Below, piece after piece: positions 45,717-63,794 of a DNA stretch of 64,000 nucleotides. Positions within the stretch are counted from its first letter, which is position 1. Every line of letters starts with the position of its first letter. The position numbers were made by a program, and so were the translations under genes. The stretch is taken from contig DASVDR010000029.1 of assembly GCA_036381015.1 (NCBI GenBank), positions 96,676 through 160,675 on the forward strand, written 5' to 3'. The notes under the pieces were generated by a model. It searched no databases and was not told the DNA's origin. It saw only the letters and a program-made list of their open reading frames with translations. This DNA is from Gammaproteobacteria bacterium. Its GTDB lineage: Bacteria; Pseudomonadota; Gammaproteobacteria; Steroidobacterales; Rariloculaceae.

Positions 45717-45788
45717 CGTGAAATCAGGGACGCTTCGATCGAGGGGCCCGCGCCAGGGAGACCACATTCGATTCGTGAGGACGATGTC

Positions 45789-46190
45789 ATGCGACCGAGC
45801 ATTGCCTTGCTGACCCTGGCCGCCTCGAGCCTGCTTTCGAGCGGGCAGGCGAACGCCCACCATTCCTATGCCGCCACGTACGACGTATCCCGAACCGTGC
45901 GGCTCGAGGGCCGGCTCGTGCGCTTCGAATACCGCAGCCCGCACTCCTATCTGCACTTGGTCGTGAAGGGTGAGGACGGTGAAACGCAGCGCTGGGCCGT
46001 CGAATGGGCCGCGCCGAGCTCGCTGGTCCGACAAGGCGTCTCGCGCGATACGCTGCGCACCGGGGACGAGCTCATCGTGGTCGCCCGGCCGTCGCGCGCG
46101 CAGGGCGAGTTTCGCAGCCTGATGCTGACGCTGGAGCGCCCCGCCGACGGGCTCAAATGGGGCACGAATCCCGACGAAGTGGTGGACTGA
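45789..46190 (+). CDS. Small secreted protein, DUF6152-like (mature N-terminus His-His)
   Basis: Signal ..SSGQANA followed by HHSYAATYD. 133 aa. Family name is from memory of similar 'AHHS' proteins and is not verified. Confidence 0.6.
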   Translation: MRPSIALLTLAASSLLSSGQANAHHSYAATYDVSRTVRLEGRLVRFEYRSPHSYLHLVVKGEDGETQRWAVEWAAPSSLVRQGVSRDTLRTGDELIVVARPSRAQGEFRSLMLTLERPADGLKWGTNPDEVVD

Positions 46191-46192
46191 TC

Positions 46193-46921
46193 GTGTCGGC
46201 AGTCGTGAAGCTCGGCTTCGGCTTCGTCGCAGCGATCGGCGCGAGCACGAATCTCGCGCTGGCGCAGCCCGGCGAGACCGCGGGAACGGCCCGCGAATCG
46301 GCCCCGATCGATCTCACCGGATACTGGGTCTCGGTGGTCTTCGAAGACTGGAAATACCGCATGGTCACACCGAGTCCCGGTATCTTCGACGGCATACCGC
46401 TCAACGCCGACGGCCGAAATGTCGGCGAAGCCTGGGATCCGGAAGCCGACGAGGCGGCAGGCGATGCGTGCAAGGCGTACGGCGCGCCGGCCATCATGCG
46501 TCTGCCCGGTCGCTTCCGCATCAGCTGGGAAGACGACCAGACGCTGCGGATCGACACCGACAACGGCGAGCAGACTCGCCTGTTGCACTTCACGGAAACT
46601 TCCGCGGGCGCACCGACGCGTCAGGGCCGTTCGTTCGCGGAGTGGCAACCGGCGCCCGGCGGCACGGGCGGCAGCTTGAAAGTGACGACCGACAATCTGC
46701 TACCGGGCTACATACGCAAGAACGGCGCTCCGTACAGCGAGCTCACGACGATGACGGAGTACTACGACCTGCATACGCTCCCGAACGGCGACATTTACCT
46801 CACGATCACGACGCGGGTCACGGACCCGCGGTATTTCCGCGGCCCGGCAATGACCAGCACCGACCTGCGCAAGCTGCCGGACGACCGGGGCTGGAACCCG
46901 ACGCCCTGCACCGGGCGCTAG
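46193..46921 (+). CDS. Secreted protein of unknown function (third copy of the recurring domain)
   Basis: GTG start 2 nt after the upstream stop. Signal VKLGFGFVAAIGASTNLALAQP. ..GGSLKVTTDNLLPGYIRKNGAPYSELTTMTEYYDL....ITTRVTDPRYF. Confidence 0.6.
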   Translation: MSAVVKLGFGFVAAIGASTNLALAQPGETAGTARESAPIDLTGYWVSVVFEDWKYRMVTPSPGIFDGIPLNADGRNVGEAWDPEADEAAGDACKAYGAPAIMRLPGRFRISWEDDQTLRIDTDNGEQTRLLHFTETSAGAPTRQGRSFAEWQPAPGGTGGSLKVTTDNLLPGYIRKNGAPYSELTTMTEYYDLHTLPNGDIYLTITTRVTDPRYFRGPAMTSTDLRKLPDDRGWNPTPCTGR

Positions 46922-46943
46922 GCGCCGACGAGGTCCGCGCGCG

Positions 46944-47420
46944 CTAGCGTCGATCGAGCTTCTTCGTCTCGGCGCGGAGCCGCCGCGCGTTGCGCGTCAG
47001 GAAATCGGCGATGACGGCGAGCTCGCGGTCCGAGTAGTGCTCGAGGAGCCGGCGCAAGGAGCGCTGGGTGGAGGCGAACATGTCGCGGGCGCCGTGGAGG
47101 TGCTCCAAGACGGGCTCGACCAGCACGCGCCGGCGGTCCCGGTCGTCCTGCATTCGCCGCGCAAACCCCTTGCGCTCGAGCCGATCGATGAGGTTGGTGA
47201 CCGAAGCCGTAGCGAGACCGGACTGCCGCGCGATCTCGCCCGCGCTCATCGCGCCGAACCTCTCGAGCAGGCCGAGGACCTTGTAGTCGGTGGGGTGAAG
47301 CTCCATGAGGCTCGCGACGATCGCGTGAAACAGCACCGTCGCATCGCTGTGCTCGCGCCCGGCCTTCGCCAGCTCCGCGAGAAGATCCTCGCGTGGGCGA
47401 GGCCGTGACCTCGAAGTCAT
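46944..47420 (-). CDS. MarR-family transcriptional regulator
   Basis: ..LHPTDYKVLGLLERFGAMSAGEIARQSGLATASVTNLIDRLERKGFARRMQDDRDRRRVLVE. Confidence 0.9.
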   Translation of the reverse strand: MTSRSRPRPREDLLAELAKAGREHSDATVLFHAIVASLMELHPTDYKVLGLLERFGAMSAGEIARQSGLATASVTNLIDRLERKGFARRMQDDRDRRRVLVEPVLEHLHGARDMFASTQRSLRRLLEHYSDRELAVIADFLTRNARRLRAETKKLDRR

Positions 47421-47433
47421 CGTTTCTCCCGAG

Positions 47434-47892
47434 CTAGCCGAGCCGCGCGGCGGATACGAGCGCGGTGAGCAATGCCCCGCAGGTCAAGAGGTCCAGCGGC
47501 AGCCGGCCGATGCTCCGCCGGCTCCACCTGCGCGCCGCCGCGGGGTCGACGCTCGCCGGATCCGCGCGCTCGAAGGCGAGGGCTTTCGGGATGAAGTCGA
47601 ACGCGGACCAGATTCGCATGACCGCATGGCTCGCGAGGGCCACGAGCAGCGGCGCGCGCACATCGGGCTCACGCCACGTGACCACGAGCGAGACGATCAG
47701 CGCGAGTTCGAACACCGTGTGAGCGGGGATCCAGAAGCGCTTGCGCGAGATACCGCCGCGCTGCGGCTGAATGAGCTCCGGGCGGCGCGGCCAGAACGGA
47801 TCGACGACCAGAAACTCGTAGAGCCCGCCGCCGAGCGACGCCAGACCCAAGGCCGTCGTCAGCGCGACGACGACCAGGGAAGAGGTAGACAT
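47434..47892 (-). CDS. Small 4-TM membrane protein (DUF1772/anthrone-oxygenase-like), upstream of marR
   Basis: 152 aa with four hydrophobic helices. The family call is tentative. Confidence 0.55.
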   Translation of the reverse strand: MSTSSLVVVALTTALGLASLGGGLYEFLVVDPFWPRRPELIQPQRGGISRKRFWIPAHTVFELALIVSLVVTWREPDVRAPLLVALASHAVMRIWSAFDFIPKALAFERADPASVDPAAARRWSRRSIGRLPLDLLTCGALLTALVSAARLG

Positions 47893-48069
47893 TCCGTGCC
47901 TCCTTGTTCATCTCGAGTTCCTCTCTTGTGGAAGATATTACGGTACACCGAGAGATCGTGTAAAGAGCTGCACGAACGCCGGGCGGCGCGGATCGCGTCC
48001 GTCCTTCCTCGCTTCCGCAGCCCATCCTTCCATTTGAAACTAAAATGGAACGTGCTATTCTCTATTGGT

Positions 48070-48417
48070 ATGTCTAATAAAGAACCGGCCAGGGCACAGT
48101 TCCTCCGCGGCACGCTCGATCTCATGATCCTGCAATCGTTGGCGGCGATGGGGCCGATGCACGGCTATGCGATCGCCGCGCGGCTCGAGCAGGCATCGGG
48201 CGGCGCGCTCCTGCCCAACATGGGCACACTCTATCCCGGGCTGATGCGCCTCGAGCAGCGCGGCCTCATTCGCGCGAATTGGGGTACCACGGAGAACAAC
48301 CGGCAGGCGCGCTTTTACTCGATCACGGCGGCAGGGCGCCGGCATCTCGCAGCCGAGAAGAAGTCCTGGGAGCAAATGGTGGCGATCATGCAGACGCTGT
48401 TCGGTGAGCCGACGTGA
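48070..48417 (+). CDS. PadR-family transcriptional regulator (second copy)
   Basis: FLRGTLDLMILQSLAAMGPMHGYAIAARLEQ...GTLYPGLMRLEQRGLIRANWGTTENNRQARFYSITAAGR. Inner ATG of ORF 47626..48417. Confidence 0.9.
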   Translation: MSNKEPARAQFLRGTLDLMILQSLAAMGPMHGYAIAARLEQASGGALLPNMGTLYPGLMRLEQRGLIRANWGTTENNRQARFYSITAAGRRHLAAEKKSWEQMVAIMQTLFGEPT

Positions 48418-48475
48418 GAGGGGCCGGTGCCGGAGCGGGCGCCGGCGAACGCGCCGGCCGAGCGCGGGGCAGCCC

Positions 48476-48745
48476 ATGAAGTCTCTCGAGACGCTGCGCG
48501 AGTGGGCTCGCCGCGCGTCGGGGACCTTCCGGGCCGAATGCTCCTCTTCACGCTGCTGCTCGTTCCGCCATGGCTCACCTGCTCGGCGTCGTGATACCGA
48601 TCGAGGAGCTCGGGGGGCGAGAGGTACCCGGCGTCCTGCCGCTCGCGGCGCTCGTCATGCTGGGCGTCTGCGGATTGGCAGCTGCGGGACCGGCCGGCGG
48701 GCGCTCCGAGTGGCGCCGACGGACGCGCTGCGGGAAGGCGGCTAA
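48476..48745 (+). pseudogene. Near-complete deletion relic of the ADOP permease expected downstream of padR
   Basis: About 270 nt only. Permease-prefix-like start MKSLETLREWARR.. A last-TM-like segment ..VLPLAALVMLGVCGLAAAGPA lies in one frame and the signature tail ..RRALRVAPTDALREGG* in another (compare ..ARRVTAIEPSALLREEG* and ..[16 protein letters not shown] of the other copies). Confidence 0.4.
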
Positions 48746-48795
48746 AAAATGGTGTCAGACACCTTTTTCGGAAATGGTGTCAGACACCTTTTTCG
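48744..48795. repeat. Palindromic repeat pair, locus A (2 x AAATGGTGTCAGACACCTTTTTCGG)
   Basis: Cores GGTGTC-A-GACACC are centred at 48757 and 48782 (25 bp apart), each flanked by an A-run and a T-run. Lies between convergent genes. Confidence 0.9.
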
Positions 48796-49025
48796 GCGCG
48801 CTCCGCTGCCGGCTGTTTCGCATCCGGCTCGTACACGAGAAGATCTCCCGGCTGGCAGTCCAGAATCGCGCAAAGCCTTTCCAACGTGCTGAAGCGGATG
48901 GCTTTGGCCTTGCCGGTCTTCAGGATCGAAAGATTCTGGGGCGTGATGCCCACTTGCTCCGCGACGGTGCTGGAGCGCAATTTGCGCTTCGCGAGCATGA
49001 CGTCGAGATTGACGATGATGGCCAC
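48780..49025 (-). CDS. Small Cro/CI-type HTH regulator (YozG-like)
   Basis: GTG start giving (M)AIIVNLDVMLAKRKLRSSTVAEQVGITPQNLSILKTGKAKAIRFSTLERLCAILDCQPGDLLVYE. The last codons (EKGV*) and the stop lie inside palindromic repeat A2. Confidence 0.85.
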   Translation of the reverse strand: MAIIVNLDVMLAKRKLRSSTVAEQVGITPQNLSILKTGKAKAIRFSTLERLCAILDCQPGDLLVYEPDAKQPAAERAEKGV

Positions 49026-49038
49026 TTCGACGGCCCCG

Positions 49039-49584
49039 CTAGACGACGAGGTCCTGCTCCTCGCGGAGCTCTCGGCCGACGTCCATGATCCAGGAGACGA
49101 CGATGATGATGATTCCGACGACGAGCTCCGTGAACGGCGCCTCGTCGATCCGGATCCGGCTCGCGATGCCATGGCCGGGGACCAGCAAAACCGCGATCAG
49201 GCCCAGCGTCCAGAGGGTGGGGATGAGCATGACGGCGATGCCGATCTGACGGATCTGGTAAACGTTGTCCGCGCTGAAGATCTTGCCTTGTGCATAGAGC
49301 CCGAACAGCTTGACGAGGTGGAAAAGCACCTTCAGCAGTATCCCGGTGCTCAGGATGAAACCCACGACGGCCATCGACCGGAGCACGGCGGGAATGACGT
49401 CTCCGACGTAGATCGCGCCGCCCACGGTGACGCTCGTGTCGTACGGGTCCGTGCCCGTGGCGATCAGCAGCGTGCCCACGAGCAGCGCAATGGCCGTCGC
49501 GCCCAGCAGAAGCTGAAAGAGCTGCCGGAGCGAGCGGCTGTAGCGGGCGACCCTCTCCAGCTTGTCGGTGCGTTGCGTCGTCAC
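49039..49584 (-). CDS. DUF2975-family membrane protein
   Basis: 181 aa with 4-5 TM. Immediately upstream of the YozG-like HTH (13-nt gap), which is the usual pairing for this family. Confidence 0.75.
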   Translation of the reverse strand: MTTQRTDKLERVARYSRSLRQLFQLLLGATAIALLVGTLLIATGTDPYDTSVTVGGAIYVGDVIPAVLRSMAVVGFILSTGILLKVLFHLVKLFGLYAQGKIFSADNVYQIRQIGIAVMLIPTLWTLGLIAVLLVPGHGIASRIRIDEAPFTELVVGIIIIVVSWIMDVGRELREEQDLVV

Positions 49585-49939
49585 CGGATTGGCTCCCTGT
49601 GGCGTGGAACGACTAGCGATGGTCTATTAAACAGCCATTTTTTATCGTGCGTCAATAATTAATTTATGTTTAATATTCAGAAGGTGGTTCCTGGGAAGCG
49701 TGCGGGGCGGCGGGACGGAGGACCCTCGTGCGCGCGTCGTCGATCCGGTCGCGGATCGGCACGCGGACTCGATCTCATGCCTCCATGGCACGCAACTTGC
49801 TCCCGCTCCGTTGGACGTCAGTGTCGGCGGCGAGATTGCTCGCCCTTCGTTCGAGCGCGCTCGTCGCCGATACGACCATGATGATCGAAAGGGCGCCCCG
49901 AGTATCGGGTGACCCGAGTCAGGACGGGAGGGGACGAAG

Positions 49940-50104
49940 ATGCCCGATTACGTCTATCGCTGTGCGAAGTGCGGCGAAGCGTTCGAGCGGACGGAACGCA
50001 TGTCGGAGCACGGACAGTCGAAGCCCGAGTGCCCGAAGTGCAAGAGCCGCGACGTCCACAGCGTGCCGGCGTCGTTCTTCGCGAAGACGTCGCGGAAGAG
50101 CTGA
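49940..50104 (+). CDS. FmdB/CxxC_CxxC_SSSS-family zinc-ribbon protein (54 aa; below the ORF-track size cutoff)
   Basis: MPDYVYRCAKCGEAFERTERMSEHGQSKPECPKCKSRDVHSVPASFFAKTSRKS*. MP-Y-Y-C--CG-FE ... CP-C signature. GGGAGGGG SD upstream. Confidence 0.75.
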   Translation: MPDYVYRCAKCGEAFERTERMSEHGQSKPECPKCKSRDVHSVPASFFAKTSRKS

Positions 50105-50256
50105 GGCCTTCGAACGGCCGCCCGCGCGCACCTTACCCGCGCTCACGATCACCGTCATGCGCTCCTGACGGTCGCTTCCCGGTGCCGTCAAATGCAGCGC
50201 ACGCACGCGGCGCCGTCCCGTGATCGAGCCGGCTCGGCCGACTGCGCAGACCCTCG

Positions 50257-50541
50257 CTAGCTTTCGCCCTTCGGGCGCTCCAGAGACTTTCGCAGCGTGT
50301 CGAGCAAGTCCGGCTCCTCGGCGCCGGCAGCCGGTCCGTCGACTCGCTCGCAGCGATATTTATCCTTGATCAGCCGGTTGATGAAGCGGCCCTTCGACTT
50401 CGCGCGCGACAGCCATTCGTAGGCCGCCGGCGGAACATCCAAGTAACGGTACAGCTTCGACGAGGAAAACTCGACGTCGAGCGTACGTTCTTCCGCGTTG
50501 TACGCGATCCGGCGGATACCGCGGGACTTGACCGTATGCAT
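50257..50541 (-). CDS. KTSC-domain protein
   Basis: Inner ATG of ORF 50257..50805: MHTVKSRGIRRIAYNAEERTLDVEFSSSKLYRYLDVPPAAYEWLSRAKSKGRFINRLIKDKY. Confidence 0.8.
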   Translation of the reverse strand: MHTVKSRGIRRIAYNAEERTLDVEFSSSKLYRYLDVPPAAYEWLSRAKSKGRFINRLIKDKYRCERVDGPAAGAEEPDLLDTLRKSLERPKGES

Positions 50542-50955
50542 GCCGACAGAGCCTACCTCAGGGTGTAGGTCCGCGTCTCGTGTTCCCGCGCCTCGGCGCC
50601 GCGTGAATCGCCGTTGTGCGAACGCGCTCATGGATCCCTTCTCCCAGTCGCCTACAATGCGCAGCGAGCCGCCGCGCAATCTCGACGGCGCGAGCATGCC
50701 GCTCAGCGACGACGGCGGCGCTCGCCGCGACTTGCCGAATCGTGAGATCGCGCGCGGCGGACGAGCAAACGCTCGTTCGAGCGCGTCGTACACCATGGGG
50801 GGCAAATCGACAGATGGAACTTATTGCTTATGTGCTTGCGTTCGCGCTCGGGTGGCTGAGCGTGAAGATTGCACGCCAGCTTTATGAGCGATACAAGACG
50901 CCGGGCTGACGGGGGGCGAGGGCGCTGACGGCGGCGCGCGCCCGGCGCGCCGGCC

Positions 50956-51327
50956 TCAACCGGCGCCGCGCTCCCGCGGCCGCCCCATCCAGCGCCACGA
51001 CGAAACGTGCAGCACGATGACGACGATCGAGCCGAGCGCGACGAGCAGGAAGAGATACGCGGGCCAGTAAATGCCGTCGCGGCCCTCGAAATGACCGGCC
51101 AGGTAATCGAAGCCGTTGTCCAGATAGCGGTAAACGCCCCAGGTCGAAAACGCGAAGGTCAGCACGGTCAGCACGAATGCGATCCAGACCGCCACCGCCT
51201 TGTCCCATATCGCGGCGATCGAAGCGATCAGGTAGCACAGGCCGACGGCGCCGGTGATCAGCAGCAGGGTGCCCGGATAGATCAGCCAAAAAAGAACGAG
51301 CACGCCGACGGCAACGGCGAGCTGCAC
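50956..51327 (-). CDS. Small membrane protein (about 4 TM), start uncertain
   Basis: Hydrophobic tail of ORF 50956..52161 (..AVAVGVLVLFWLIYPGTLLLITGAVGLCYLIASIAAIW...). Candidate GTG start at 51327, just downstream of msrA. Confidence 0.45.
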   Translation of the reverse strand: MQLAVAVGVLVLFWLIYPGTLLLITGAVGLCYLIASIAAIWDKAVAVWIAFVLTVLTFAFSTWGVYRYLDNGFDYLAGHFEGRDGIYWPAYLFLLVALGSIVVIVLHVSSWRWMGRPRERGAG

Positions 51328-51359
51328 CGTCTTGAGAACGCTGATCCGCGCCGAGCCGT

Positions 51360-51971
51360 CTACTTCCCGCCCCACAGCTCTTCGAGCCGATCCGGGCGGC
51401 CGCACGTGTACTTGTAGAACCTGTATCTCAGCGCGTTGTGCTTGTAGTAATCCTGGTGATAGCCCTCGGCCGGGTAGAACTCCGTCGCGGGAACGATCTC
51501 CGTGACGATCTTGCCCGGCAGCACGCCGCTTTCCTCGAGCTCGCGCTTCGAGCGCTCGGCGAGCTCGCGCTGGCGCTCGTTGTGATAGAAGATCGCGCTG
51601 CGGTACTGGTCGCCCCGGTCGCAGAACTGCCCGCCCGCGTCGAGCGGATCGATGTTGTGCCAGAAGGCATCGAGCAGCTCCTCGTAGGTCACGACATCGG
51701 GATCGTACTCGACCCGCACCGATTCGGCGTGCCCCGTGTTGCCTGCCGAGACCTGCTCGTAGCTTGGATGCGGCACGTGGCCGCCGGTGTAGCCCGACGT
51801 GGTCGAGAGGACGCCCTCGACCTTGTCGAACGCCTCTTCCACGCACCAGAAGCAGCCGCCGGCGAACGTGGCGACCGCGGTGTCCTCCGAGCCTTCCTCG
51901 GCGGGCTGGGCCGCAAGCGGTGCAGCGACCGCCGCTGCGGCGGCGAGCAATACGCACAGTAGCTGATTCAT
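51360..51971 (-). CDS. msrA: Peptide-methionine (S)-S-oxide reductase, exported form
   Basis: GGAGGAG SD. Signal [21 protein letters not shown]. Active-site GGCFWC. GYTGG, HAE.V.V.YDP, GYHQDY. Confidence 0.9.
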
Positions 51972-52197
51972 CGCATCTCCTCCTCGTGGGGCCGAGGGCT
52001 TCCGCACGGCTGCCCGCCGGCTTCGCACGATGCGCGCTGCTGGCCGGAGGCGGCGAGCTGCCGAGAGCGCTTCGCCCGATTGTACCAAGCCTGGGCGCCT
52101 CGGCCGCCTCGTTTCCGCGCCCGGCAGCATCTCTTCGCATGGAGGGGGCAGCGTCTTGCATAATGACGGCTTCATCTCGCTTTCAAACGGACTCGTC

Positions 52198-53865
52198 ATG
52201 GCAGGCAGTTGGATTGCGGCCGCCTTGGTTCTCGGCCTCCTGGCCTGGCGCACGGGGCTGCCGCCGCTGGTCGGCTTTCTGGTGTGCGGCTTCGTGCTGG
52301 GAGCGCTCGGCATGGAGACGACGCCCGCGCTCGAGCAAGTGGCGCACGCCGGCGTGCTGCTGCTCCTTTTCGCCGTCGGCCTGAAGCTGCGTCTCAAGAC
52401 GCTGATGCGCTACGAGGTGTGGGGCACCGCGGTTGCGCATCTGGTGATCGTCTCGGCCGTCGTCGCGGTCCCGGTGGCCATCGCCGGCGGCTTGCCGGTG
52501 ATGCTCACGATCGCGCTCGCCGTAGCGCTCAACTTCTCGAGCACGGTATTCGCGGCCAAAGTGCTCGAGGACCGGGAGGAGCTGCGCGCCGTGCACGGGC
52601 GCGTGGCGATCGGCATTCTGATCGTGCAGGACATTGCGGCCGTCGCCCTGCTCGCGCTGCTGAACGGGGAGAGGCCGTCGCCTTACGCGCTGCTGTTGCT
52701 GGCTCTGCCGTTCGCGCGGCCGCTGATCGCCCGCCTGCTCACGGTCGTCGGTCACGGCGAGCTGTTCGTGCTGCTCGGCGCGGCGCTCGCGCTGGCCGTC
52801 GGCGGAGAGGGCTTCGAGCGGCTCGGGCTGAGCCCGGAGCTCGGCGCGCTCGTGCTCGGGATGATGCTCGCAAACCATCCGCGTGCGCACGAGCTGAGTG
52901 GAGCGCTGTGGAGCCTGAAGGAGCTGTTGCTGATCGGCTTCTTCCTGTCCATCGGGATGAGCGGGACGCCGACGTGGGTGGTCGCCGAGTCGGCGGCCCT
53001 GCTGCTCGTGCTGATGCCGTTGAAAGCCGGCGTGTTCTTCTTCCTGCTGCTGCTCCTCGGCCTGCGTGCGCGCACCAGCTTGTTGACCGCATTGAGTCTT
53101 TCGACGTTCAGCGAGTTCGGGCTGATCGTCACTCAGCTCGCCGTGGACAACGGCATGCTCGATCAGCGCTGGCTCACCGCCGCGGGTATCGCCGTGGCGC
53201 TCTCGTTCGCGGTCGCCGCGCCGCTGAACGCGCGCGCTCATGCGCTCTACGCCCTGACCCGCCGGTGGCTGGACTGCCTCGAGCGCGACAAGCGGCACCC
53301 GGACGACGAGCCGATCACGTTCGGCAGCGCCGAGATCCTCGTCGTCGGGATGGGCCGCGTCGGCACCGGTGCGTTCGACTATCTGCGGGCGCAGGGGAAG
53401 CACGTCGTCGGCGTCGACAGCGATACCGGCAAGCTCGAGCGTCATCGGCGCGAGGGGCGGCGGGTCGCCTACGCCGACGCCGAGGATCCGAACTTCTGGC
53501 TGCGGCTGAAAGTGGACCGCCTGCAGCTCATCATGCTCGCGATGCCCGATCTCGAAGCGAAGCTGCGCTCGATCCGGGAGCTTCGGCGGCGCGGGTTCGA
53601 AGGAATGATCAGCGCGACGCATGTGTATCCGGACGAGCTCGCGCCGCTGCTCGAGGCGGGCTGCGATGCGAGCTACAACTACTTCAGCGAGGCGGGGTAC
53701 GGCTTCGCGCGGCATACGCTCGAAGCGCTGTCGTCGCCGGACGGCACGGCCGGGACCGTGCTCTCGGAAGCGACGCCGGCCGAGGAGGGCTCGCTCGACG
53801 CGGAATCCGCCCCCGCAAGCGTGGCCCTCCCGATGGCGTTCATGCAGCAGACCGAGGAGAAGTAG
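52198..53865 (+). CDS. Kef/YbaL-type monovalent cation:proton antiporter with C-terminal TrkA-N (RCK) domain
   Basis: Na_H_exchanger-type TM core (..[15 protein letters not shown]..). [17 protein letters not shown] Rossmann motif. Inner ATG of ORF 52030..53865. Confidence 0.85.
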
Positions 53866-53923
53866 CGCGGGCCGAGGGGCGATCGCGACGCGGCCTCGGT
53901 CCTGGCCGGGAAAATCGGGCGCG

Positions 53924-56350
53924 TCAGATCGCCGAGCGTTCGGGCTCGCCGGCCTCGTCGGCGACGGTTTCGGCCGCGGGCGGCACCTCCAGCATCCTGA
54001 ACGCATCGCTCTTCACGATGCCGCGGACCAATGCCGAAAAGCGGTAGCGGTCGCGCGCCGCGTCGTCGACGATCCGGCGCACCGTCGGCATGTCGTAGTA
54101 CTCGAGCGAGCGGCCGAGCGCGTAGGTCATCAGCTCCTCGGTGATGGTCCAAACGATTCGCTCCGGATCTTCGAGGAGCGCCCGGCGCAGCTCGTCCGGC
54201 CCCACGATCTCCTTGCCGCCGATCAGCTTCCCGCTCGCGTCGATCGGCTCGCGGGCGCGCTTGTCGTAGTCCTGCCATTCGCCGATCGCGTCGAAGTTCT
54301 CGAGCGTCAAGCCGAGCGGGTCCATGACCGCATGGCAGGAAGCGCAGACCGCGTCCGCACGATGCTGCTCGAGCCGCTCGCGGACCGTGCGCGGCTCGGG
54401 GCCTGTGTCCTCGACGAGATCCGTGTCGACGCCGGGCGGCGGCGGGGACGGCGGCGAGCCGATCAGGTTCTCGAGGATCCACTTGCCCCGAATCACGGGG
54501 GCCGTGCGATTCGGATACGACGTCGCCATCAGGATCGCGCCCTTGCCGAGCAGGCCGAAACGCGCCGAGCTCTCGAGCTCGACGCGGCGGAACTGATCGC
54601 CGCGCACCGCGGGCAGCCCGTAGAGATGCGCGATCGTCTCGTTGACGAAGGTGTGATCCGCCGTCATCAGGTCGAGGACGCTCCGGTCCTCGAGCAGGAT
54701 GCTCGCGAGGAAGAGCTCGAGCTCGTGCTTGTAGGCTTCGCGGGGATCGGGCGTGGCCTGCGGGAAGATGCCGCGGTCCGGCACGACGTCGTCGAGCTTG
54801 TCCACGTCGAGCCACTGGAACGCGAAGCTCGTGACGAGCGAACGGGCGCGCTCGTCGGCGAGCATGCGCTCGATCTGCGCGTCGAGGACCTCGGGCTCGC
54901 CGAGCCGCCCTTGCTCGGCGACGCGGAGAAGCTCGTCGTCGGGGATGCTGCTCCAGAGGAAGAACGAGAGACGCGACGCGAGCTCGAGATCCGACAGCTC
55001 GTAGATCGAGCCCGGAGGCAGATCCTCGGACGGAGACGCGAAGCGGAACAGGAAATCCGGGCTCGCGAGAATCGCGGTAACGGCTTTGCGGATGCCCGTC
55101 TCGAAGCCGCCCGACGCGGCGCCGCCGCGATAGAACGCGAGCAGCTTGTCGAGGTCGTGCTTGCCGACCGGGCGGCGGTACGCGAGCCGGGCGAGCCGCC
55201 CGAGAATCTCGCGCGCACAGCTCTCCGCCGTCTCGGCGCCCGCATCGGGACCGACATGGCAGCTGAAGATCTTGCGGCGGGACGGCGTCTCGCTCACGCC
55301 GCTCGGATGGAACGGGCCCTGGAGCTCGAACGAGCTCACGCGCAGGATGCGGTCCTGGCCGCCGCCGGGCGCCGCGAGCTGAAGCCGATCGTCGGATTCC
55401 GCGAAGGTGCGCGCGAGGAACGTGACGCCGACCTGATGCGGACCCGCCGTGGCCTCGAAGCGGATGTTCTTCAGGCGTTGATTGATGCGGTCGACGGCCG
55501 ATTGGCCGTGCTGGTCGATCGCCTTCTGGTCCTCCTCGCCGCCGATCGTCGTGCGGTAGACCTCTCGCCCGTCGAGCGTGACGAGCACCGTGTTCTCGAA
55601 CTCCATGTTGTAGACCCAGAGCGCCTGGGCCATGTCCGCGACGTTGATGACGTACTCGCCGTCGGCGGGGAAGTCGTGCATTACCGCCAGCCCGCCGCGC
55701 GTGCCGAGCGGCAGCCCTTCGATGTGACGCTTGTAGGATCCCGCGTCGCCGTCGTTGACGTAAGTCGTGCTGCCGGGCGGCGCATCCGGATTGCCGACGG
55801 CTTCGATCGCGACCGTGCGAGCGGCTGCGACGTACTGCTCCATGAACGTCGGCGAGATCGTCAGGACCGAAGCGTTGTTGTCGAAGCCGCTCTTCTTGTT
55901 GTCGGGCGGAAGGAGCTCCGTGGCATCGACGTCGACGCCGAGGAGATCCCGCACGGCATTCTCGTATTCGGTGCGGTTCAAACGACGCAGGCCGACGAAG
56001 CCCGGGTGGGGCCCGGAGGCTTCGGCCTCCTCGGCGAGCCGATGCTCGAGCGCGGCGACGAAGGCGGCCTTTTGCTCGGGAGACGGCTGCGGGCGGTCCG
56101 GCGGCGGCATCAAGTTGCCGCGGAACTTGCGCAGGACTTTCTCCCAGACGGCGGCATCGGCGCCGACGTTCTCGGGGCTCATCTCCTCGAGGACGAGGCC
56201 GCCGGTGCGGTCGATCGAATTGTGGCAGTCGACGCAGTAGGTTTCGACGAGGCCCCACTGCTCGGCCACCGATCCCGGGCCCCGGGAGCAGGCGGCAAGG
56301 GCGAGAGAGCCGATGAGGACGGCGACTCCTTGTCTATACGTCCGGTGCAT
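53924..56350 (-). CDS. Haem-binding DUF1592/DUF1595/DUF1587/DUF1588/DUF1585-type lipoprotein
   Basis: Lipobox LALAAC. CVDCHN haem motif. LRRLNRTEYENAVRDLLG. C-terminal CASCHAVMDPLG, typical of this 'planctomycete cytochrome' family. Confidence 0.85.
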   Translation of the reverse strand: MHRTYRQGVAVLIGSLALAACSRGPGSVAEQWGLVETYCVDCHNSIDRTGGLVLEEMSPENVGADAAVWEKVLRKFRGNLMPPPDRPQPSPEQKAAFVAALEHRLAEEAEASGPHPGFVGLRRLNRTEYENAVRDLLGVDVDATELLPPDNKKSGFDNNASVLTISPTFMEQYVAAARTVAIEAVGNPDAPPGSTTYVNDGDAGSYKRHIEGLPLGTRGGLAVMHDFPADGEYVINVADMAQALWVYNMEFENTVLVTLDGREVYRTTIGGEEDQKAIDQHGQSAVDRINQRLKNIRFEATAGPHQVGVTFLARTFAESDDRLQLAAPGGGQDRILRVSSFELQGPFHPSGVSETPSRRKIFSCHVGPDAGAETAESCAREILGRLARLAYRRPVGKHDLDKLLAFYRGGAASGGFETGIRKAVTAILASPDFLFRFASPSEDLPPGSIYELSDLELASRLSFFLWSSIPDDELLRVAEQGRLGEPEVLDAQIERMLADERARSLVTSFAFQWLDVDKLDDVVPDRGIFPQATPDPREAYKHELELFLASILLEDRSVLDLMTADHTFVNETIAHLYGLPAVRGDQFRRVELESSARFGLLGKGAILMATSYPNRTAPVIRGKWILENLIGSPPSPPPPGVDTDLVEDTGPEPRTVRERLEQHRADAVCASCHAVMDPLGLTLENFDAIGEWQDYDKRAREPIDASGKLIGGKEIVGPDELRRALLEDPERIVWTITEELMTYALGRSLEYYDMPTVRRIVDDAARDRYRFSALVRGIVKSDAFRMLEVPPAAETVADEAGEPERSAI

Positions 56351-57260
56351 AGAAGCCCCACAGGCTCTGAAACGCGAGAGTCACGAACTCGTCCCGCTGC
56401 GGCCACTCGGGATGATAGTCACGTGTCGGCTGCGCCGCGACCGCTTCGGCCGGGCTCAGCCCCTTGAAAAGCAGCTCGTCGCGGAAGCGCACGAAGAGCT
56501 GGGCGTACATGTCGCGCTGCGCTACGAGGTCCGTGCGGCGCAACACCGGCCCTTCGGACGGCACGATGATCGTGTCGTCTTTCGCGATCTGGAGCAGCGT
56601 CTCGATGCCCTCGACGAGGCCGCCGAACCAGCCGCCGGTCCACCAGTCGATCAGGGGCCAGCGGTCGCCGGCGATCACGCCGCCGCACGCGAGAACGTTC
56701 GCGTCCGGGAAGAAGACGTAGCAGTCCCCGTCGGTATGGGCCTGAAGCATGTACCCGCATTCGAACGGCACGTCGCCGAGGTCGAGCTCGCGGCTCGATT
56801 CGTAGAAGGAGAGCTTGGGGCGTGCGTCGGGCGGAAGCGGCTCGTGCACGAAGTCTTCCCAAGGCCGCTTGATGTCGGTGCCGAGCCAGAGACGCGTGTT
56901 GGCCTGAGCGACGATCCGCGCGCCGGTGCGGGCGACGGAAGCGTTCGCGCCGGTTTGCTCCGGGTGCCAATGCGTGTTGACGAGAGTGCGGACCGGACGG
57001 CCGTCGAAGCGGGCCGCGACGGTCGCGAGCAGGGCTTCGGCATGCTCGGCGAGACCGCCGTCGACCATGACGATGCCGTCTCCGTCGGCCGCGGCGACGA
57101 TGTTCGCGCCGGCCCCGGCGATCAGCACGGTTCCTGCGCGGAGCGCCGTCACGTCGAGCTTCGCGGCGCCGGCCTGCCCGCGCGCGAGCGGAGGCAGCGC
57201 GGACGCGAGCGCGCCGTAGACTGCGCCCCGAATCAATGTTCTTCGGCTGAGGCTTTGCAT
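56334..57260 (-). CDS. Tat-exported MBL-fold protein with variant metal motif (HWHPEQ)
   Basis: MQSLSRRTLIRGAVYGALA. ..LVNTHWHPEQTGAN.. (HxHxEQ in place of HxHxDH). ..AHTDGD... 17-nt overlap with the DUF1592-type gene start. Confidence 0.8.
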   Translation of the reverse strand: MQSLSRRTLIRGAVYGALASALPPLARGQAGAAKLDVTALRAGTVLIAGAGANIVAAADGDGIVMVDGGLAEHAEALLATVAARFDGRPVRTLVNTHWHPEQTGANASVARTGARIVAQANTRLWLGTDIKRPWEDFVHEPLPPDARPKLSFYESSRELDLGDVPFECGYMLQAHTDGDCYVFFPDANVLACGGVIAGDRWPLIDWWTGGWFGGLVEGIETLLQIAKDDTIIVPSEGPVLRRTDLVAQRDMYAQLFVRFRDELLFKGLSPAEAVAAQPTRDYHPEWPQRDEFVTLAFQSLWGFYAPDV

Positions 57261-57455
57261 TTCTCGAGGCGAAACGCCGCGGCTCCCGCGCGGCGCGCTC
57301 CTTACCATCATAGGGATTCGCTCGGGCCAGGCAAACCCGCGAGAACGCAGGACTCGGGATCGCGCGCGAGCGCGCGATCCTGCGCGAAATGCTTCCAGGC
57401 CTCGACGATGCGTCATGTAACATGCTCGACGCGTTTCCGCCTGGGCTTCTTACGA

Positions 57456-58289
57456 ATGATCGTCCACCTGATCGACGGCACCTACGAGCTGTTCCGGCAC
57501 TTCTACGGTCTGCGCCGCTTCACGAAGGGCAAGGACAGACCCTACGGCGCAGTCGTCGGTGTCCTCAACATGGTGCTGAAGATGATCGAAGGCGACGCGA
57601 CGCATTTGGGCGTCGCGACCGACCACGTCATCGAGTCGTTCCGCAACGAGCTCTGGCCCGGCTACAAGACCGGCGAAGGGATCGAGCGTGCGCTTCTCGC
57701 GCAATTCCATCCGCTCGAGGAAGCCCTCGCGGCGATGGGTGTTGCGGTCTGGCCGATGGAGGAGCTCGAGGCGGACGACGCGCTCGCGAGCGCGGCGCGC
57801 ATCGCCGCAGCCGACGAGCGCGTGCGGAAGGTCTGCATTTGGACGCCCGACAAGGATCTCGCGCAATGTGTGCAGGGCGATCGCGTCGTGCAAATCGTTC
57901 GCCGCGGCAAGGAGATTCGCGATGCGACCGGCGTGCGCCGCAAGTTCGGCGTGGATCCCGAGCGGATTCCGGATTTTCTCGCGCTGGTCGGCGATCCGGC
58001 CGACGGCTATCCGGGTCTGTCCGGCATCGGGCCGGTCACGGCCGCGCAGCTCGTGCGCCGATACGGCGCCATCGAGGACTTTCCTTCGGCGGTTCTCGGG
58101 AAGCGGCGCGAGACGGCTCTGCTGTTCAAGAAGCTCGCGACCCTGCGCACGGACGCGCCGCTATTCTCGAACGTCGAGGAGCTGCGATGGCGCGGGCCGA
58201 CGGCGGGCTTCGCCGAATACGCCGAGCGTCTCGGAAGCAGCCGTCTGACCGTGCGCTGCGAGAAGGCGAGCCGCCGCGCCGCAGGCTGA
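57456..58289 (+). CDS. 5'-3' exonuclease / flap endonuclease (PIN-like 53EXO + H3TH)
   Basis: MIVHLIDGTYELFR.., ..EADDALAS.., ..TPDKDLAQC.., ..DFLALVGDPADGYPGLSGIGPVTAAQLV... Alternative upstream ATG at about 57407. Confidence 0.85.
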   Translation: MIVHLIDGTYELFRHFYGLRRFTKGKDRPYGAVVGVLNMVLKMIEGDATHLGVATDHVIESFRNELWPGYKTGEGIERALLAQFHPLEEALAAMGVAVWPMEELEADDALASAARIAAADERVRKVCIWTPDKDLAQCVQGDRVVQIVRRGKEIRDATGVRRKFGVDPERIPDFLALVGDPADGYPGLSGIGPVTAAQLVRRYGAIEDFPSAVLGKRRETALLFKKLATLRTDAPLFSNVEELRWRGPTAGFAEYAERLGSSRLTVRCEKASRRAAG

Positions 58290-58296
58290 TCGAATC

Positions 58297-58353
58297 GAAA
58301 AAAAGGTGTCAGACACCTTTTTGGGAGAAAAGAGGTGTCTGACACCATTTTCT
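58297..58353. repeat. Palindromic repeat pair, locus B
   Basis: GAAAAAAAGGTGTCAGACACCTTTTTGGG followed by GAGAAAAGAGGTGTCTGACACCATTTTC. Cores centred at 58311 and 58340. Confidence 0.9.
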
Positions 58354-58441
58354 TGCGCGCCAACATAGCCGCTTCGTTCAAGCGCCGGGCGCGGCGCCAT
58401 GGGACACTGCATGCAGGCCACCCACCCAGCCGGACGCGCAG

Positions 58442-59140
58442 ATGAACACCTGTATCCGCCCGCGACCTCCCGCCGCCCCGGACCCCCGCACGACCTACAT
58501 GCGCCCGTTGCCCGCCGATCTCGTCGCGCTCGACTCCCGAGACGGGCGAGCGCTGTTCACGCAGGCGTTGACGGCGGGAACCATGGAAGGCTACTTCAAG
58601 CTGGCCCAGCAATTTCACACTCAATCGGATCCGGCCTATTGCGGTCTCGGGTCGCTCGTCTGCGCGCTGAACGCGCTGAACATCGATCCTGCTCGCGTCT
58701 GGAAGGGGCCGTGGAGATGGTTCAGCGAGGAGCTGCTCGACTGTTGCAAGTCGCTCGACGACGTCCGGCAATTCGGGCTCACGCTGGACGAAGCGGGCTG
58801 CCTCGCCGAGTGCAGCGGCGCGGCGGTCGCCATGCACCGGCCGCCGACCGCGAACGTCGACGCGTTCCGCGCGCACGCTCAGCGGGCCGCGACGGGAGCG
58901 GAGGGGCCGGTGCTCGTCGTGAATTACTCGCGACGAGCCTTGGGCCAGACCGGGGGCGGCCACTTCTCGCCGATCGGCGGCTACCACGTGCCGACGGACA
59001 AGGTGCTCGTGCTCGACACGGCCCGTTTCAAGTATCCGCCCCACTGGGTGCCCGTCGACCTCCTCTTCGACGCGATGGAGGACGAGGATCGGGACACGGG
59101 CCGCCCGCGCGGCTGGCTCCTGATCGACAAAGGCGCTTGA
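58442..59140 (+). CDS. Bacterial phytochelatin synthase-like papain-fold enzyme (PCS domain only)
   Basis: Catalytic triad contexts all present: QSDPAYCGLGSL (Cys), GGGHFSPIGGYH (His), VLVLDTARFKYPPHWV (Asp). Alternative start MRPLP at 58499. Confidence 0.85.
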   Translation: MNTCIRPRPPAAPDPRTTYMRPLPADLVALDSRDGRALFTQALTAGTMEGYFKLAQQFHTQSDPAYCGLGSLVCALNALNIDPARVWKGPWRWFSEELLDCCKSLDDVRQFGLTLDEAGCLAECSGAAVAMHRPPTANVDAFRAHAQRAATGAEGPVLVVNYSRRALGQTGGGHFSPIGGYHVPTDKVLVLDTARFKYPPHWVPVDLLFDAMEDEDRDTGRPRGWLLIDKGA

Positions 59141-59198
59141 CCGAAAAAAGGTGTCTGACACCTTTTTCGGGAAAAAAGGTGTCTGACACCTTTTTTTC
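59141..59198. repeat. Palindromic repeat pair, locus C
   Basis: CCGAAAAAAGGTGTCTGACACCTTTTTCGG (near-perfect 30-nt palindrome) followed by GAAAAAAGGTGTCTGACACCTTTTTTTC. Cores centred at 59156 and 59184. Starts 1 nt after the PCS stop. Confidence 0.9.
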
Positions 59199-59222
59199 TG
59201 TCGAGAGTCATAATTTGCGCTC

Positions 59223-60017
59223 ATGGACGCGGCGCAATTCTTCCGTGGCGGCTGGGTTCGCTTCCCGCACGCCCCCGAGGTTGCGGACTGGGCGGCACGA
59301 GCCCGCCCGGTGGCGGAGGCTTGCGTCGCGGACCCGGAACAACGCGCGCGCTGGCTGCGATGCGGCGGCACTTGGTTCGTCGGCGTCAACGTCTTCCCGA
59401 ACGATGCCGCCGGCGCCGTGCCGGAGGCGGGCGTGCCTCCGCTCGCGGGCCCGCCGGTCGAATTCATCGCGGAGGCGTTGAAGCTTGCGGTCGGATGGGA
59501 CAGGGGGCAGATCTCGGCCTGTTTTCCCGGCTATCCCCGGCCCTCGGCCGGCGAATCCGCGGCCGCGTTCCGCTTTCGCCGCGACCGTGACGCGGCGCAT
59601 GTCGACGGTCTACAGCGCTTCGAGAGTCGGCGTCGCCGGCTCGGCGAGCTGCAAGGCTTCATCCTCGGCGTGCCGCTGACGGACGCTCCCGCCGGGGCCG
59701 CGCCGCTCGTGGTGTGGGAAGGCTCGCATGAGGTGATGCGCCGCGCGCTGCGCGCACGGCTCGCCGACGTGCCGACGGAGCGCTGGAGGGACGAGGACCT
59801 TACCGACGCTTACGTCGCGGCCCGGCGCGAGTGCTTCGAGACGTGCCGCCGCGTGCCGCTTCACGCGCGCCCCGGCGAGTCGTATCTGATTCACCGGCTC
59901 GCACTGCACGGCGTCGCGCCCTGGAGCGCCGCGCCGGCCGGCGAGCGCCTGATCGCGTATTTCCGCCCGAATCCGTTTCCGGACGCCGCTCCCGATTGGT
60001 GGCTGGACCGGCCCTAG
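59223..60017 (+). CDS. Hypothetical protein, possibly PhyH-like Fe(II)/2-oxoglutarate oxygenase superfamily
   Basis: AAHVDG (HxD), VVWEGSHE, and LIHRLALHG (distal His) resemble PhyH-type spacing. By-eye call only. Confidence 0.45.
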   Translation: MDAAQFFRGGWVRFPHAPEVADWAARARPVAEACVADPEQRARWLRCGGTWFVGVNVFPNDAAGAVPEAGVPPLAGPPVEFIAEALKLAVGWDRGQISACFPGYPRPSAGESAAAFRFRRDRDAAHVDGLQRFESRRRRLGELQGFILGVPLTDAPAGAAPLVVWEGSHEVMRRALRARLADVPTERWRDEDLTDAYVAARRECFETCRRVPLHARPGESYLIHRLALHGVAPWSAAPAGERLIAYFRPNPFPDAAPDWWLDRP

Positions 60018-60079
60018 CACGTGCCGCCGAGCCGGCATCCGCCTAGAATCGACGGCGGCCGAGCCAGAGAGATTCGCCC

Positions 60080-60346
60080 GTGCCCCACGCAGCATCCGGT
60101 CTCGACGCCGACCGCCTCGCCCACCTCGAGGCGACGATCCACGCCGACATCGAAGCGGACCGCTACTTCGGCGCGGTCGTTGCCGTCGCGCGCCGTGGCG
60201 AGCTCGGCCTTTGCGAGGCGATCGGCTTCGGCGACGAGGCGCTCGAGATGACGTTCGTCTGCCTGTCGGCCGGCGTGATGCAGCCCGCGCCGAACATCGA
60301 GCGGTTTCAGCGGCTGTCCGACATCGCCGCGTCGGCGGCGTTGTGA
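60080..60346 (+). pseudogene. N-terminal stub of a serine hydrolase (beta-lactamase/transpeptidase-like family)
   Basis: (GTG)PHAASGLDADRLAHLEATIHADIEADRYFGAVVAVARRGELGLCEAIGFGD.. matches the usual N-terminus. It then diverges before any SxxK motif and stops at 88 aa. Confidence 0.5.
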
Positions 60347-60516
60347 GGCGGCCCCCCGGTTGATCCGGCCTCCCGCGGATGGTCTACTCGCCCCCTGCGG
60401 CGGGAACCGCTCGCACCGCAAGCGGTGGCCCGGTCGCATTCGCCCGGATAGAGTGTTCCCCGGGGGGGCAGGGGGCCGGCGGCGGACCGGCCTGGTGCGG
60501 GGAAGGAGGAGCTTTG

Positions 60517-62103
60517 ATGGTAAAGCGTGGGGTCGATCGGCTGTTCGCACGGAAATCGGTCGAGCAAATGCACGCCGAGCACGAGCATGGGGAGCTCAAG
60601 AAGACGCTCGGCGCACTGAATCTCGTTCTGCTCGGGGTCGGCTGCATCATCGGCACGGGTATTTTCGTGCTGACGGGCAGGGCGGCTGCCGAGTTCGCCG
60701 GGCCCGGCATCATGATCTCGTTCATCATCACGGGAACGCTGTGCGCGCTCGTGGCGCTCTCTTACGCGGAGCTTGCGGCGGCAATACCGGTCTCGGGCTC
60801 GGCGTATTCGTACTCGTACGCCTCGATGGGCGAGATGGTCGCCTGGATCATGGGCCTGCTGCTGGTGCTCGAGTACGGCCTCGCGGCGTCGACCGTGGCG
60901 GTAGGCTGGTCGGGATACGTCGCGAGCTTCTTGCACGACATCGGCATCGATCTGCCCCCGGCGCTGCGCGCCGCGCCGGGGGTCGAGGTCACGGATTTCA
61001 CCAGCGGAGCGGTGGTTGGCACCGGCGCCGTCAACTTGCCCGCCTTGATCGCGATCATCGCCGTGAGCGGCCTCCTCGTGCTCGGTGTCTCGGAATCGGC
61101 GCTCGTCAACAACATCATCGTGTTCATCAAGACGTCGGTCATCGTCGCGTTCATCGTGATCGGCGCATTCTTCGTGAACCCCGATCTCTGGACGCCGCTG
61201 ATTCCGCCCCAGCAGCCGCCGCCGCCGGCCGGCGCGGATGCGGGCATCTGGAGCCAGATCGGCAGCGCGCTCTGGGCCGTCCTCACCGCGCAAAGCACGG
61301 GCCAGTACGGCGTGCCGGGGCTCATCACCGGCGCCGCCACGATTTTCTTCGCGTACATCGGTTTCGAGGCGGTGTCGACCGCGGGCGCGGAATCGAAGAA
61401 CCCGGCGAGGGACATGCCGATCGGCATCCTCGGCTCCCTGATCATCTGCACGATTCTTTACATCCTCACGTCGGGGGTGCTCGTCGGAATCGTCCCGTAC
61501 ACGGACCTCGACGATCCCGCGCCGATTGCGAAGGCGGTCAACCAAATCGGGCTGCCATGGTTCGCCGCGCTCGTGAAGATCGGCGCCATCGCCGGTCTCT
61601 CGTCGGTGATGCTCGTGCTGCTCTACGCGCAGACGCGCATCTTCTACACGATCGCGCGTGACGGTCTGATCCCGCCCGTCTTCGCGGTCGTGCACCCGAA
61701 GTTCAAGACGCCGTGGATCAACACGATCATCGTCGGCGTCGTCGCGTGCGGTTTCGCGGGATTCATGGGGCTCGACGCGCTCGCGAATCTGACGAACGTC
61801 GGCACGCTTGCCGCGTTCACGATCGTCTGCTTTACGGTGCTCTATCTTCGATATGCCAGGCCCGACATGCGCCGGCCGTTCAAGACGCCGCTGTTCCCGG
61901 TGACCCCGCTCCTCGGCGCCGTCATGTGCTTGTTCTTGTTGATGTCGCTGATGGCGCACGAGGCGACGCGTAACTTCTTTCTCATCTATCTCGGGTTCGG
62001 CTTCCTTCTCTACTTCGTGTACGGCGTGTGGAACTCGAAGCTCGGGAAGGGCATCGTCGTCGGGGGCCATGAGGAGGTCATGCCTCCCGGAATCGCCGAC
62101 TGA
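60517..62103 (+). CDS. APC-superfamily amino acid permease (cationic amino acid transporter-like)
   Basis: GGAAGGAGG SD. ..LKKTLGALNLVLLGVGCIIGTGIFVLTG..AGPGIMISF.. 12-14 TM. Inner ATG of ORF 60379..62103. Confidence 0.9.
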   Translation: MVKRGVDRLFARKSVEQMHAEHEHGELKKTLGALNLVLLGVGCIIGTGIFVLTGRAAAEFAGPGIMISFIITGTLCALVALSYAELAAAIPVSGSAYSYSYASMGEMVAWIMGLLLVLEYGLAASTVAVGWSGYVASFLHDIGIDLPPALRAAPGVEVTDFTSGAVVGTGAVNLPALIAIIAVSGLLVLGVSESALVNNIIVFIKTSVIVAFIVIGAFFVNPDLWTPLIPPQQPPPPAGADAGIWSQIGSALWAVLTAQSTGQYGVPGLITGAATIFFAYIGFEAVSTAGAESKNPARDMPIGILGSLIICTILYILTSGVLVGIVPYTDLDDPAPIAKAVNQIGLPWFAALVKIGAIAGLSSVMLVLLYAQTRIFYTIARDGLIPPVFAVVHPKFKTPWINTIIVGVVACGFAGFMGLDALANLTNVGTLAAFTIVCFTVLYLRYARPDMRRPFKTPLFPVTPLLGAVMCLFLLMSLMAHEATRNFFLIYLGFGFLLYFVYGVWNSKLGKGIVVGGHEEVMPPGIAD

Positions 62104-62118
62104 CGATTCGCGTCGGCG

Positions 62119-62765: not shown

Positions 62766-62812
62766 CGTCAGGCGAGACGCGCTCTATCGAGCAGAATGCC
62801 TTCGACACACGC

Positions 62813-63777: not shown

Positions 63778-63794
63778 CGAACCGAGCGCCGGGG

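Follow-up and report, generated by a model that had tools for sequence, protein, structure and literature searches.

Introduction

This study concerns six short perfect palindromes, arranged as three doublets, within a 64,000-nt stretch (positions 96,676 to 160,675 of contig DASVDR010000029.1, GenBank assembly GCA_036381015.1; hereafter, the window) of the genome of an uncultured soil gammaproteobacterium (Rariloculaceae), and the described repeat systems with which these palindromes can be compared. Inverted pairs of the DNA uptake sequence (DUS) are found downstream of genes in Neisseria, where they double as terminator hairpins, and have a known uptake function in this one lineage. Canonical repetitive extragenic palindromes (REPs), the bacterial interspersed mosaic elements (BIMEs) and hairpin-forming REP doublets (REPINs), together with the RAYT/TnpAREP transposases, are known from E. 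coli and Pseudomonas (Nunvar 2010; Bertels & Rainey 2011; Ton-Hoang 2012).

The closest described system, as argued below, is the TIRtron, in which the gene of a TIRYT (an IS200-related tyrosine transposase of the Y1/HUH type) has inverted, hairpin-forming repeats at both of its ends (both names are from Di Nocera, De Gregorio & Rocco 2013, BMC Genomics 14:522, PMC3733652). According to the same authors, the terminal inverted repeats (TIRs) share the motif GGGGWSAS, are self-complementary in some cases, and form moderately abundant families often encountered as dimers or clusters (e.g., the family of S. maltophilia ORF 1152); RB2408 of Rhodopirellula baltica is among the TIRYTs of their Additional file 5. 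In the classification by Quentin et al. (2018, BMC Genomics 19:475, PMC6006769), TIRYTs constitute TnpAY1 subclass 2.1, which is mapped to Bertels' group 1 in Table 1 of that paper and bears the HUH signature NH[VYF]H and the tyrosine signature YIELNP or Y[IV]HLNP. The canonical REPs of that paper are defined by a 5' GT[AG]G tetranucleotide located at the hairpin foot.

Six palindromes in three doublets

The six palindromes are, with a rough probability of 0.8, short non-coding REP-type repeats and, more specifically, TIR repeats of the TIRYT (TIRtron) system. They add an example to a class already known and do not constitute a new kind of element: a previously unexplained repeat is hereby assigned to the Y1-transposase-associated hairpin repeats, and no new biological question is opened by the finding. 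The preliminary description of this DNA, made from the sequence by eye, had suggested a “REP/BIME-like element”, which was essentially right, as the family is dispersed in multiple copies in many genomes and flanks Y1 tyrosine-transposase genes.

The palindromes are real and far beyond chance expectation: GGTGTCWGACACC is matched six times in the 64 kb with at most one mismatch (the cores are listed in Table 1), while the expected number is 0.07 (mean of dinucleotide shuffles) and none of the 100 shuffles reached six. The 19-mer AAAGGTGTCWGACACCTTT, which comprises the core and its AAA/TTT flanks, recovers the same six sites and no others in the window even when three mismatches are allowed. 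The preliminary description had reported precisely this, namely, six copies forming three adjacent pairs, with no further copies elsewhere in the window and with core centres 25, 29 and 28 bp apart in doublets 1, 2 and 3, respectively; its remark that the A/T runs stand out in GC-rich DNA was equally accurate, the flanks of the palindromes being A5-7/T5-7 runs in DNA that is ~67% G+C throughout the window. The flank sequence varies among the copies (e.g., AATGG in pair 1, AGAGG...ACCATTTTC in unit 2b).

In a repeat scan, the palindromes were the sole short dispersed repeat family of the window (doublet 1 being family D3), the remaining reported repeats residing mostly inside long open reading frames (ORFs). 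A 4-kb contig that was assembled independently from metagenome data (L121, Logan SRR25158368) is 100% identical to the window over 57641-61718, thereby covering both doublets 2 and 3, and argues against an assembly artefact. The three loci occupy no more than 10.5 kb of the 64-kb window, a clustering that is not significant (p ~0.07, our own estimate).

Association with TIRYT transposases

An exact scan for the 19-mer was run over 185,579 species-representative genomes, and the matches listed amount to 120 loci, which is a lower bound; the counts for other genomes given below refer to these listed matches. When all the ORFs within 2.5 kb of the cores at these 120 loci were translated and clustered all-against-all, the top cross-phylum cluster was a protein of 225-360 aa found in six loci from at least four phyla: L011 (Bacteroidales), L015 (Pirellulaceae), L051 (Planctomycetota), L056 (Syntrophomonadaceae), L073 (Phycisphaerae) and L097 (Nitrospiraceae). 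In all six of them, the gene is immediately preceded by the palindrome and immediately followed by the palindrome or a close variant of it; the exact core is present on both sides in L011, L056, L073 (as a doublet on each side) and L097, and the 3' copy in L015 and L051 is the variant GGTACCTGACACC.

The palindrome-flanked protein matches PF01797 (Y1_Tnp, “Transposase IS200 like”), and the histidines of the HUH motif (N-H-x-H), as well as the Tyr and Asn of the Y-x-x-x-N-P motif, are invariant in the aligned palindrome-linked proteins, whose versions of the two motifs (NH[WYV]H and Y[VIL][EH]xNP) match the signatures of subclass 2.1. The protein from L097 shares 50% full-length identity with RB2408, a TIRYT from the alignment of Di Nocera et al. 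(PMC3733652), and only 18% identity with the E. coli RayT. The palindrome-linked proteins are, therefore, TIRYTs, and the palindrome belongs with the TIR repeats as a variant. The NCBIfam RayT model (NF047646) gave 71.7, 80.7 and 59.1 bits for three palindrome-linked proteins, two of which are thus under its cut-off of 80. Judging by the sequences, the palindromes belong to the TIR-repeat/TIRYT branch and not to the canonical GTAG-tagged REP/BIME one. The palindrome-linked proteins fall into two subgroups with a mutual identity of only ~25%, across which the residues named above are nevertheless invariant; one and the same perfect-palindrome variant flanks TIRYTs as divergent as these. No solved structure was matched at E <= 0.01 in a sequence search with the TIRYT, and relatives of the TIRYT were found in 11 of 72,556 plasmid records at no more than 40% identity.

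In the Bacteroidales metagenome-assembled genome (MAG), a palindrome copy resides inside the TIRYT frame itself (L011, 1129-2271) and is translated in frame (...TQRCQTPLC..., with a degenerate ...TQWCQTLLC...), much like the REPs inserted into tnpA genes of subclass 2.4 in the description by Quentin et al.

The association was also approached from the side of the enzyme by scanning metagenomes with the alignment of the palindrome-linked proteins, which returned 80 loci. Few of these carry the exact core, and many are flanked by inverted sister sequences (e.g., aaaaGGTGTCAGGAACCtttt, aatGGGGTCAGCCACCatt, aaaGGGGACAGGTCCAtt and aaaGGTGTCAGGTACCttt); in 33 of the 54 loci having both flanks, the 5' and 3' flanks share an exact inverted repeat of 12 nt or longer (e.g., AAAGGTGTCAGGAACCTTT, AATGGGGTCAGCCACCATT and AAAGGGGACAGGTCCATT), mostly in the form of an A-run, GGKGWSAS... 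and a T-run. The orientation of GGKGWSAS beside TIRYT genes is strongly biased, the motif being oriented as expected in 57 of 134 flanks and the opposite way in 7 of 134. The GGTGTCAG variant, as which the units of the window read, flanks TIRYT genes in L124, L128, L132, L144, L151, L153 and others, and sister perfect palindromes GGGGTCWGACCCC are found upstream of TIRYT genes in L176 and L184. Another sister variant of the core is AAAGGGGTCWGACCCCTTT.

Compared with the published TIRtrons, the likeness extends beyond the protein: the flanking repeats carry GGKGWSAS, which is close to GGGGWSAS, and the family is dispersed, multi-copy, found as dimers or clusters and inclusive of self-complementary variants, as in the S. 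maltophilia ORF 1152 family. There are differences, too, since the unit of the window is a perfect palindrome of 23-25 bp rather than a plain inverted repeat, and the core is multi-copy in many more phyla than had been published. With REPs/BIMEs and REPINs, the palindromes share being short, extragenic, dispersed, often paired and located mostly after the 3' ends of genes; the folding of a doublet as one long hairpin is REPIN-like, and repeats flanking a single Y1 transposase gene are reminiscent of a REPtron. They differ in the feet of the hairpins, which are the A5-7/T5-7 runs with no GT[AG]G, in the palindrome being perfect rather than imperfect or bulged, and in the enzyme, with its low RayT identity and its model scores near or below the cut-off. 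The pairs of Neisseria DUS are alike in being inverted repeat pairs after genes and different in their uptake function and single lineage.

Distribution in other genomes

The 19-mer is present in at least 120 loci from many phyla, often as several copies per genome, whereas ~4 matches would be expected by chance for an exact 19-mer in 596 Gb of random sequence (our own estimate). Its carriers include Planctomycetota, Thermoleophilia and other Actinomycetota, Syntrophomonadaceae and other Bacillota, Prevotellaceae and other Bacteroidales, Steroidobacteraceae, Woeseiaceae, unclassified Gammaproteobacteria, Nitrospirota, Omnitrophota, Patescibacteria and others, so that a single perfect-palindrome variant of the TIRYT repeat is multi-copy across a very wide range of phyla. 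Several MAGs have from at least 6 to at least 15 copies each, with lineage-specific palindromic arms outside the core: caataagttaaaaa-core-tttttaacttattg in Syntrophomonadaceae, aattacacaaa-core-tttgtgtaatt in Prevotellaceae and gcgcaagaaa-core-tttcttgcgc in Solirubrobacteraceae. Local duplication, which had been offered as an alternative origin of the six copies in the window, is ruled out by this cross-phylum distribution.

The matches listed contain 184 cores, of which 104 are single and 45 pairs are adjacent; the palindromes being “always as two adjacent units”, as had been stated, accordingly holds for the window and fails for the family. Core spacing in the doublets of other lineages ranges from 16 to 68 bp (modes of 28, 32 and 48 bp), and the pairs are inverted in 31 cases vs. 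direct in 14. An organisation quite unlike the doublets of the window is seen in Thermoleophilia, where the core occurs in tandem arrays (L099 4674-4918, a Gaiellaceae MAG, as well as L043, L057 and L077) with a period of 16 nt (core + TCC) or of 35 or 48 nt with alternating “cgaaaa-core”/“cgaacg-core” units.

There was no sign of a phage vector, the viral contigs giving no matches for the real motif and one for a scrambled control palindrome, and a search of plasmid records for the doublet gave a chance match only. Furthermore, neither the Rfam scan of the whole window at gathering thresholds nor the full-text literature search for the core sequence returned any family or paper, respectively.

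Hairpin folding and a possible route of dispersal

A single unit is predicted to fold (as DNA) into a 10-bp stem with a 3-nt loop at -8.5 kcal/mol, and each doublet into one hairpin of 24-27 bp in which unit a pairs with unit b. The predicted doublet folds reach -27 to -35 kcal/mol as RNA and -20 to -25 kcal/mol as DNA (z of -5.8 to -8.2), i.e., RNA -28.3/-26.9 kcal/mol (z -5.8/-6.4) and DNA -20.7 kcal/mol for doublet 1, RNA -34.0/-31.4 kcal/mol (z ~-8; an 18-pair stem in a terminator scan) for doublet 2, and RNA -35.4 kcal/mol for either strand (z -7 to -8) and DNA -24.8 kcal/mol for doublet 3. Dyad symmetry continues beyond the 19-mer for a mean of 3.1 bp vs. 0.33 expected among the matches listed, with arm sequences that differ by lineage; the arm changes across lineages are compensatory and preserve the pairing, not the sequence. 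Outer arms that remain complementary while their sequence changes point to a hairpin or cruciform rather than to a sequence-specific duplex operator.

This bears directly on the suggestion in the preliminary description that a 1-nt centre favours recognition of double-stranded DNA by a dimer, which does not agree with the 3-nt-loop fold, the doublet hairpins and the covarying outer arms. A broader version of that suggestion would have the palindromes serve as duplex operators of a dimeric regulator, e.g., the product of the neighbouring HTH_26 or PadR gene, binding cooperatively to sites 25-29 bp apart. The perfect 13-bp dyad, the paired sites ~2.5 helical turns apart, the regulator genes adjoining doublet 1 and the position of doublets 3 and 2, which end 25 nt and 90 nt upstream of the next start codon (the ATG at 59223 and the start of the phytochelatin-synthase gene), would all suit such a role. 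It is nonetheless highly improbable, given that no regulator gene is common to the loci in other phyla (the Y1 transposase is the only recurrent neighbour among the matches listed), that the spacing of paired cores elsewhere is as variable as described above, that the outer arms are not conserved, that doublet 1 overlaps the 3' end and not the promoter of the helix-turn-helix gene, and that sites in other genomes are mostly at the 3' ends of genes (by crude gene calls).

Taking the palindromes as TIR repeats, a plausible structural relationship to the published ones can be outlined. As both strands of the core, save for its centre base, read GGTGTCAG, each unit would represent two overlapping outer TIR arms that make up a perfect palindrome. 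A weaker reading is that this palindrome may be a “double-foot” joint of the fused outer arms of two inverted TIRs, fused outer arms having been suggested by Quentin et al. as the origin of “double-foot” REPs (PMC6006769); if so, this would explain the same core being found in many phyla.

By analogy with IS608 TnpA and the E. coli RayT, we infer mobilisation in trans by a TIRYT: on single-stranded DNA, such as that at a replication fork, a unit or doublet would extrude as a hairpin, to be recognised and cut by a TIRYT whose gene lies elsewhere in the genome, and copies would be seeded into new intergenic sites, those just downstream of stop codons being the ones likely to persist, as they would do little harm there. 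The palindrome might also serve as a simple symmetric candidate DNA substrate for the study of TnpAY1 subclass 2.1.

Several points weigh against the assignment to the TIRYT system. To our knowledge, no TIRYT has been characterised biochemically. The window contains no TIRYT gene or fragment in its 64 kb, and none of the gammaproteobacterial loci with the palindrome among the matches listed has a TIRYT within 8 kb. The units of the window agree with GGGGWSAS at 7 of 8 positions, the third base being T and not G (GGTG... vs. GGGG...); judged by centre base, inversion is confined to doublet 2 (A,T), the two centres being alike in doublet 1 (A,A) and in doublet 3 (T,T), so there is no strict REPIN-like inversion. 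The relatives are non-syntenic, so that comparing them gave no evidence of empty sites or insertion polymorphism (the closest relatives of the 264-aa gene, L204-L209 at 75-80% identity, have different gene neighbourhoods and no palindrome copy). Lastly, Quentin et al. reported neither REP-like structures nor a canonical REP beside subclass 2.1 genes (PMC6006769).

The lack of a TIRYT in the window would also fit the palindromes being inert relics, i.e., copies of a family that either owed its former spread to a TIRYT or was acquired by transfer, whose enzyme has been lost and which no longer have any function. No copy was found in ~52 kb of related gammaproteobacterial contigs, suggesting a patchy distribution, and Di Nocera et al. 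saw no simple correlation between the transposase genes and repeat families (PMC3733652). Long neutral decay is, however, argued against by the six perfect cores and their well-preserved flanks, which makes relics of this kind very unlikely.

Gene ends and the terminator question

All three doublets of the window are located 0-8 nt past a stop codon (Table 1 lists their coordinates). Doublet 1 lies between the PadR gene region (~48100-48417, PF03551) and the 3' end of an HTH_26 gene on the minus strand (48780-49010, within an ORF at 48780-49172; PF13443), the TGA stop of which (48780-48782) is the centre of core 1b, so that the last four residues of the protein (...EKGV*) are encoded by unit 1b of the element; a DUF2975 gene is upstream of the HTH_26 gene. 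Doublet 2 begins 8 nt past the TGA (58287-58289) of a 5'-3' exonuclease-like ORF, and doublet 3 begins 3 nt past the stop codon (59138-59140) of a phytochelatin-synthase gene (58442-59140; PF05023, E = 5.5e-83), which, thus, has doublets 2 and 3 on either side.

Table 1. Coordinates and composition of the palindromic doublets and their cores (positions of the window)
Feature	Position	Strand	Composition
Doublet 1	48744-48793	none	unit 1a 48744-48768 (A6-T-core-T5), CGG linker, unit 1b 48772-48793 (AAAT-core-T5)
Core 1a	48751-48763	none	GGTGTCAGACACC, centre A, exact match
Core 1b	48776-48788	none	GGTGTCAGACACC, centre A, exact match
Doublet 2	58298-58352	none	unit 2a 58298-58322 (A7-core-T5), GGGAG linker, unit 2b 58328-58352 (AAAAGA-core-ATTTTC)
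Core 2a	58305-58317	none	GGTGTCAGACACC, centre A, exact match
Core 2b	58334-58346	none	GGTGTCTGACACC, centre T; inverted vs. 2a by centre base
Doublet 3	59144-59197	none	unit 3a 59144-59167 (A6-core-T5), CGGG linker, unit 3b 59172-59197 (A6-core-T7)
Core 3a	59150-59162	none	GGTGTCTGACACC, centre T, exact match
Core 3b	59178-59190	none	GGTGTCTGACACC, centre T, exact match

A similar picture emerges from other genomes, for which gene context was derived from crude longest-ORF/GC3 (G+C content at third codon positions) calls and is, accordingly, approximate: 48 of the 102 classified sites are between tandem genes, 26 between convergent and ~18 between divergent ones, with ~10 inside ORFs; the median distance to the nearest inward-facing stop codon is 14.5 nt, and the TGA of the core serves as the stop codon of eight ORFs, just as it does for the HTH_26 gene of the window.

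Such positions invite the explanation that these are ordinary bidirectional intrinsic terminators, evolved in place and unrelated to any transposase. A consensus terminator scan does find a stem and a T-run on both strands, the predicted RNA hairpins are as stable as given above, and the short distance to stop codons in other genomes is in line with this role. There is, moreover, no excess of terminator-like sites otherwise in 44001-64000 (13 found vs. 11.3 expected from shuffled sequence), which makes the palindromes the clearest terminator-like hairpins of that region. Terminators that had arisen independently, however, would not share an identical 13-25 nt at three loci, let alone at a minimum of 120 loci across phyla; the same sequence is also found upstream, and not only downstream, of TIRYT genes, a part of the sites in other genomes lies between divergent genes or inside ORFs (as counted above), and the U-run is mostly paired with the A-run in the predicted fold. 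Independent terminators are, hence, an unlikely account of what the palindromes are. This objection concerns their origin/identity and not their function, because termination, which the preliminary description had proposed as a “bidirectional terminator module”, may well be a secondary role of the repeats, as the modelled folds would allow: the A-run/hairpin/T-run shape at gene ends probably doubles as a bidirectional intrinsic terminator. For annotation purposes, sites of this kind can be masked or labelled as repeats and likely terminators.

The bracketing of the phytochelatin-synthase gene by doublets 2 and 3 raises the idea of a TIRtron-like cassette with a cargo gene in place of the transposase, in which case a gene for metal detoxification might be moved by a TIRYT in trans; we regard this as very doubtful. 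The nearest homologues of this phytochelatin synthase (L122 and L123; 73-77% identity) are in other neighbourhoods, beside an AraC-type regulator, and have no palindromes nearby.

Other observations on the window

The ~330 nt that separate doublet 1 from the PadR gene (48418-48743) contain no convincing ORF, merely an Arg-rich frame of 113 aa with no clear codon-position bias, and may be a remnant of a gene that formerly followed PadR. Elsewhere, the minus-strand ORF at 31684-33402 has internal direct repeats of 33 nt and 68 nt (families D1 and D5) with spacings of ~100-450 nt, and its product is presumably a protein with tandem repeat domains. Three stretches of the window are 72-77% similar to one another (2.8-5.3 kb/23.5-26.0 kb in direct and 2.5-5.0 kb/15.0-17.6 kb in inverted orientation), one of which overlaps the 985-aa ORF at 14795-17752; these are probably paralogous genes.

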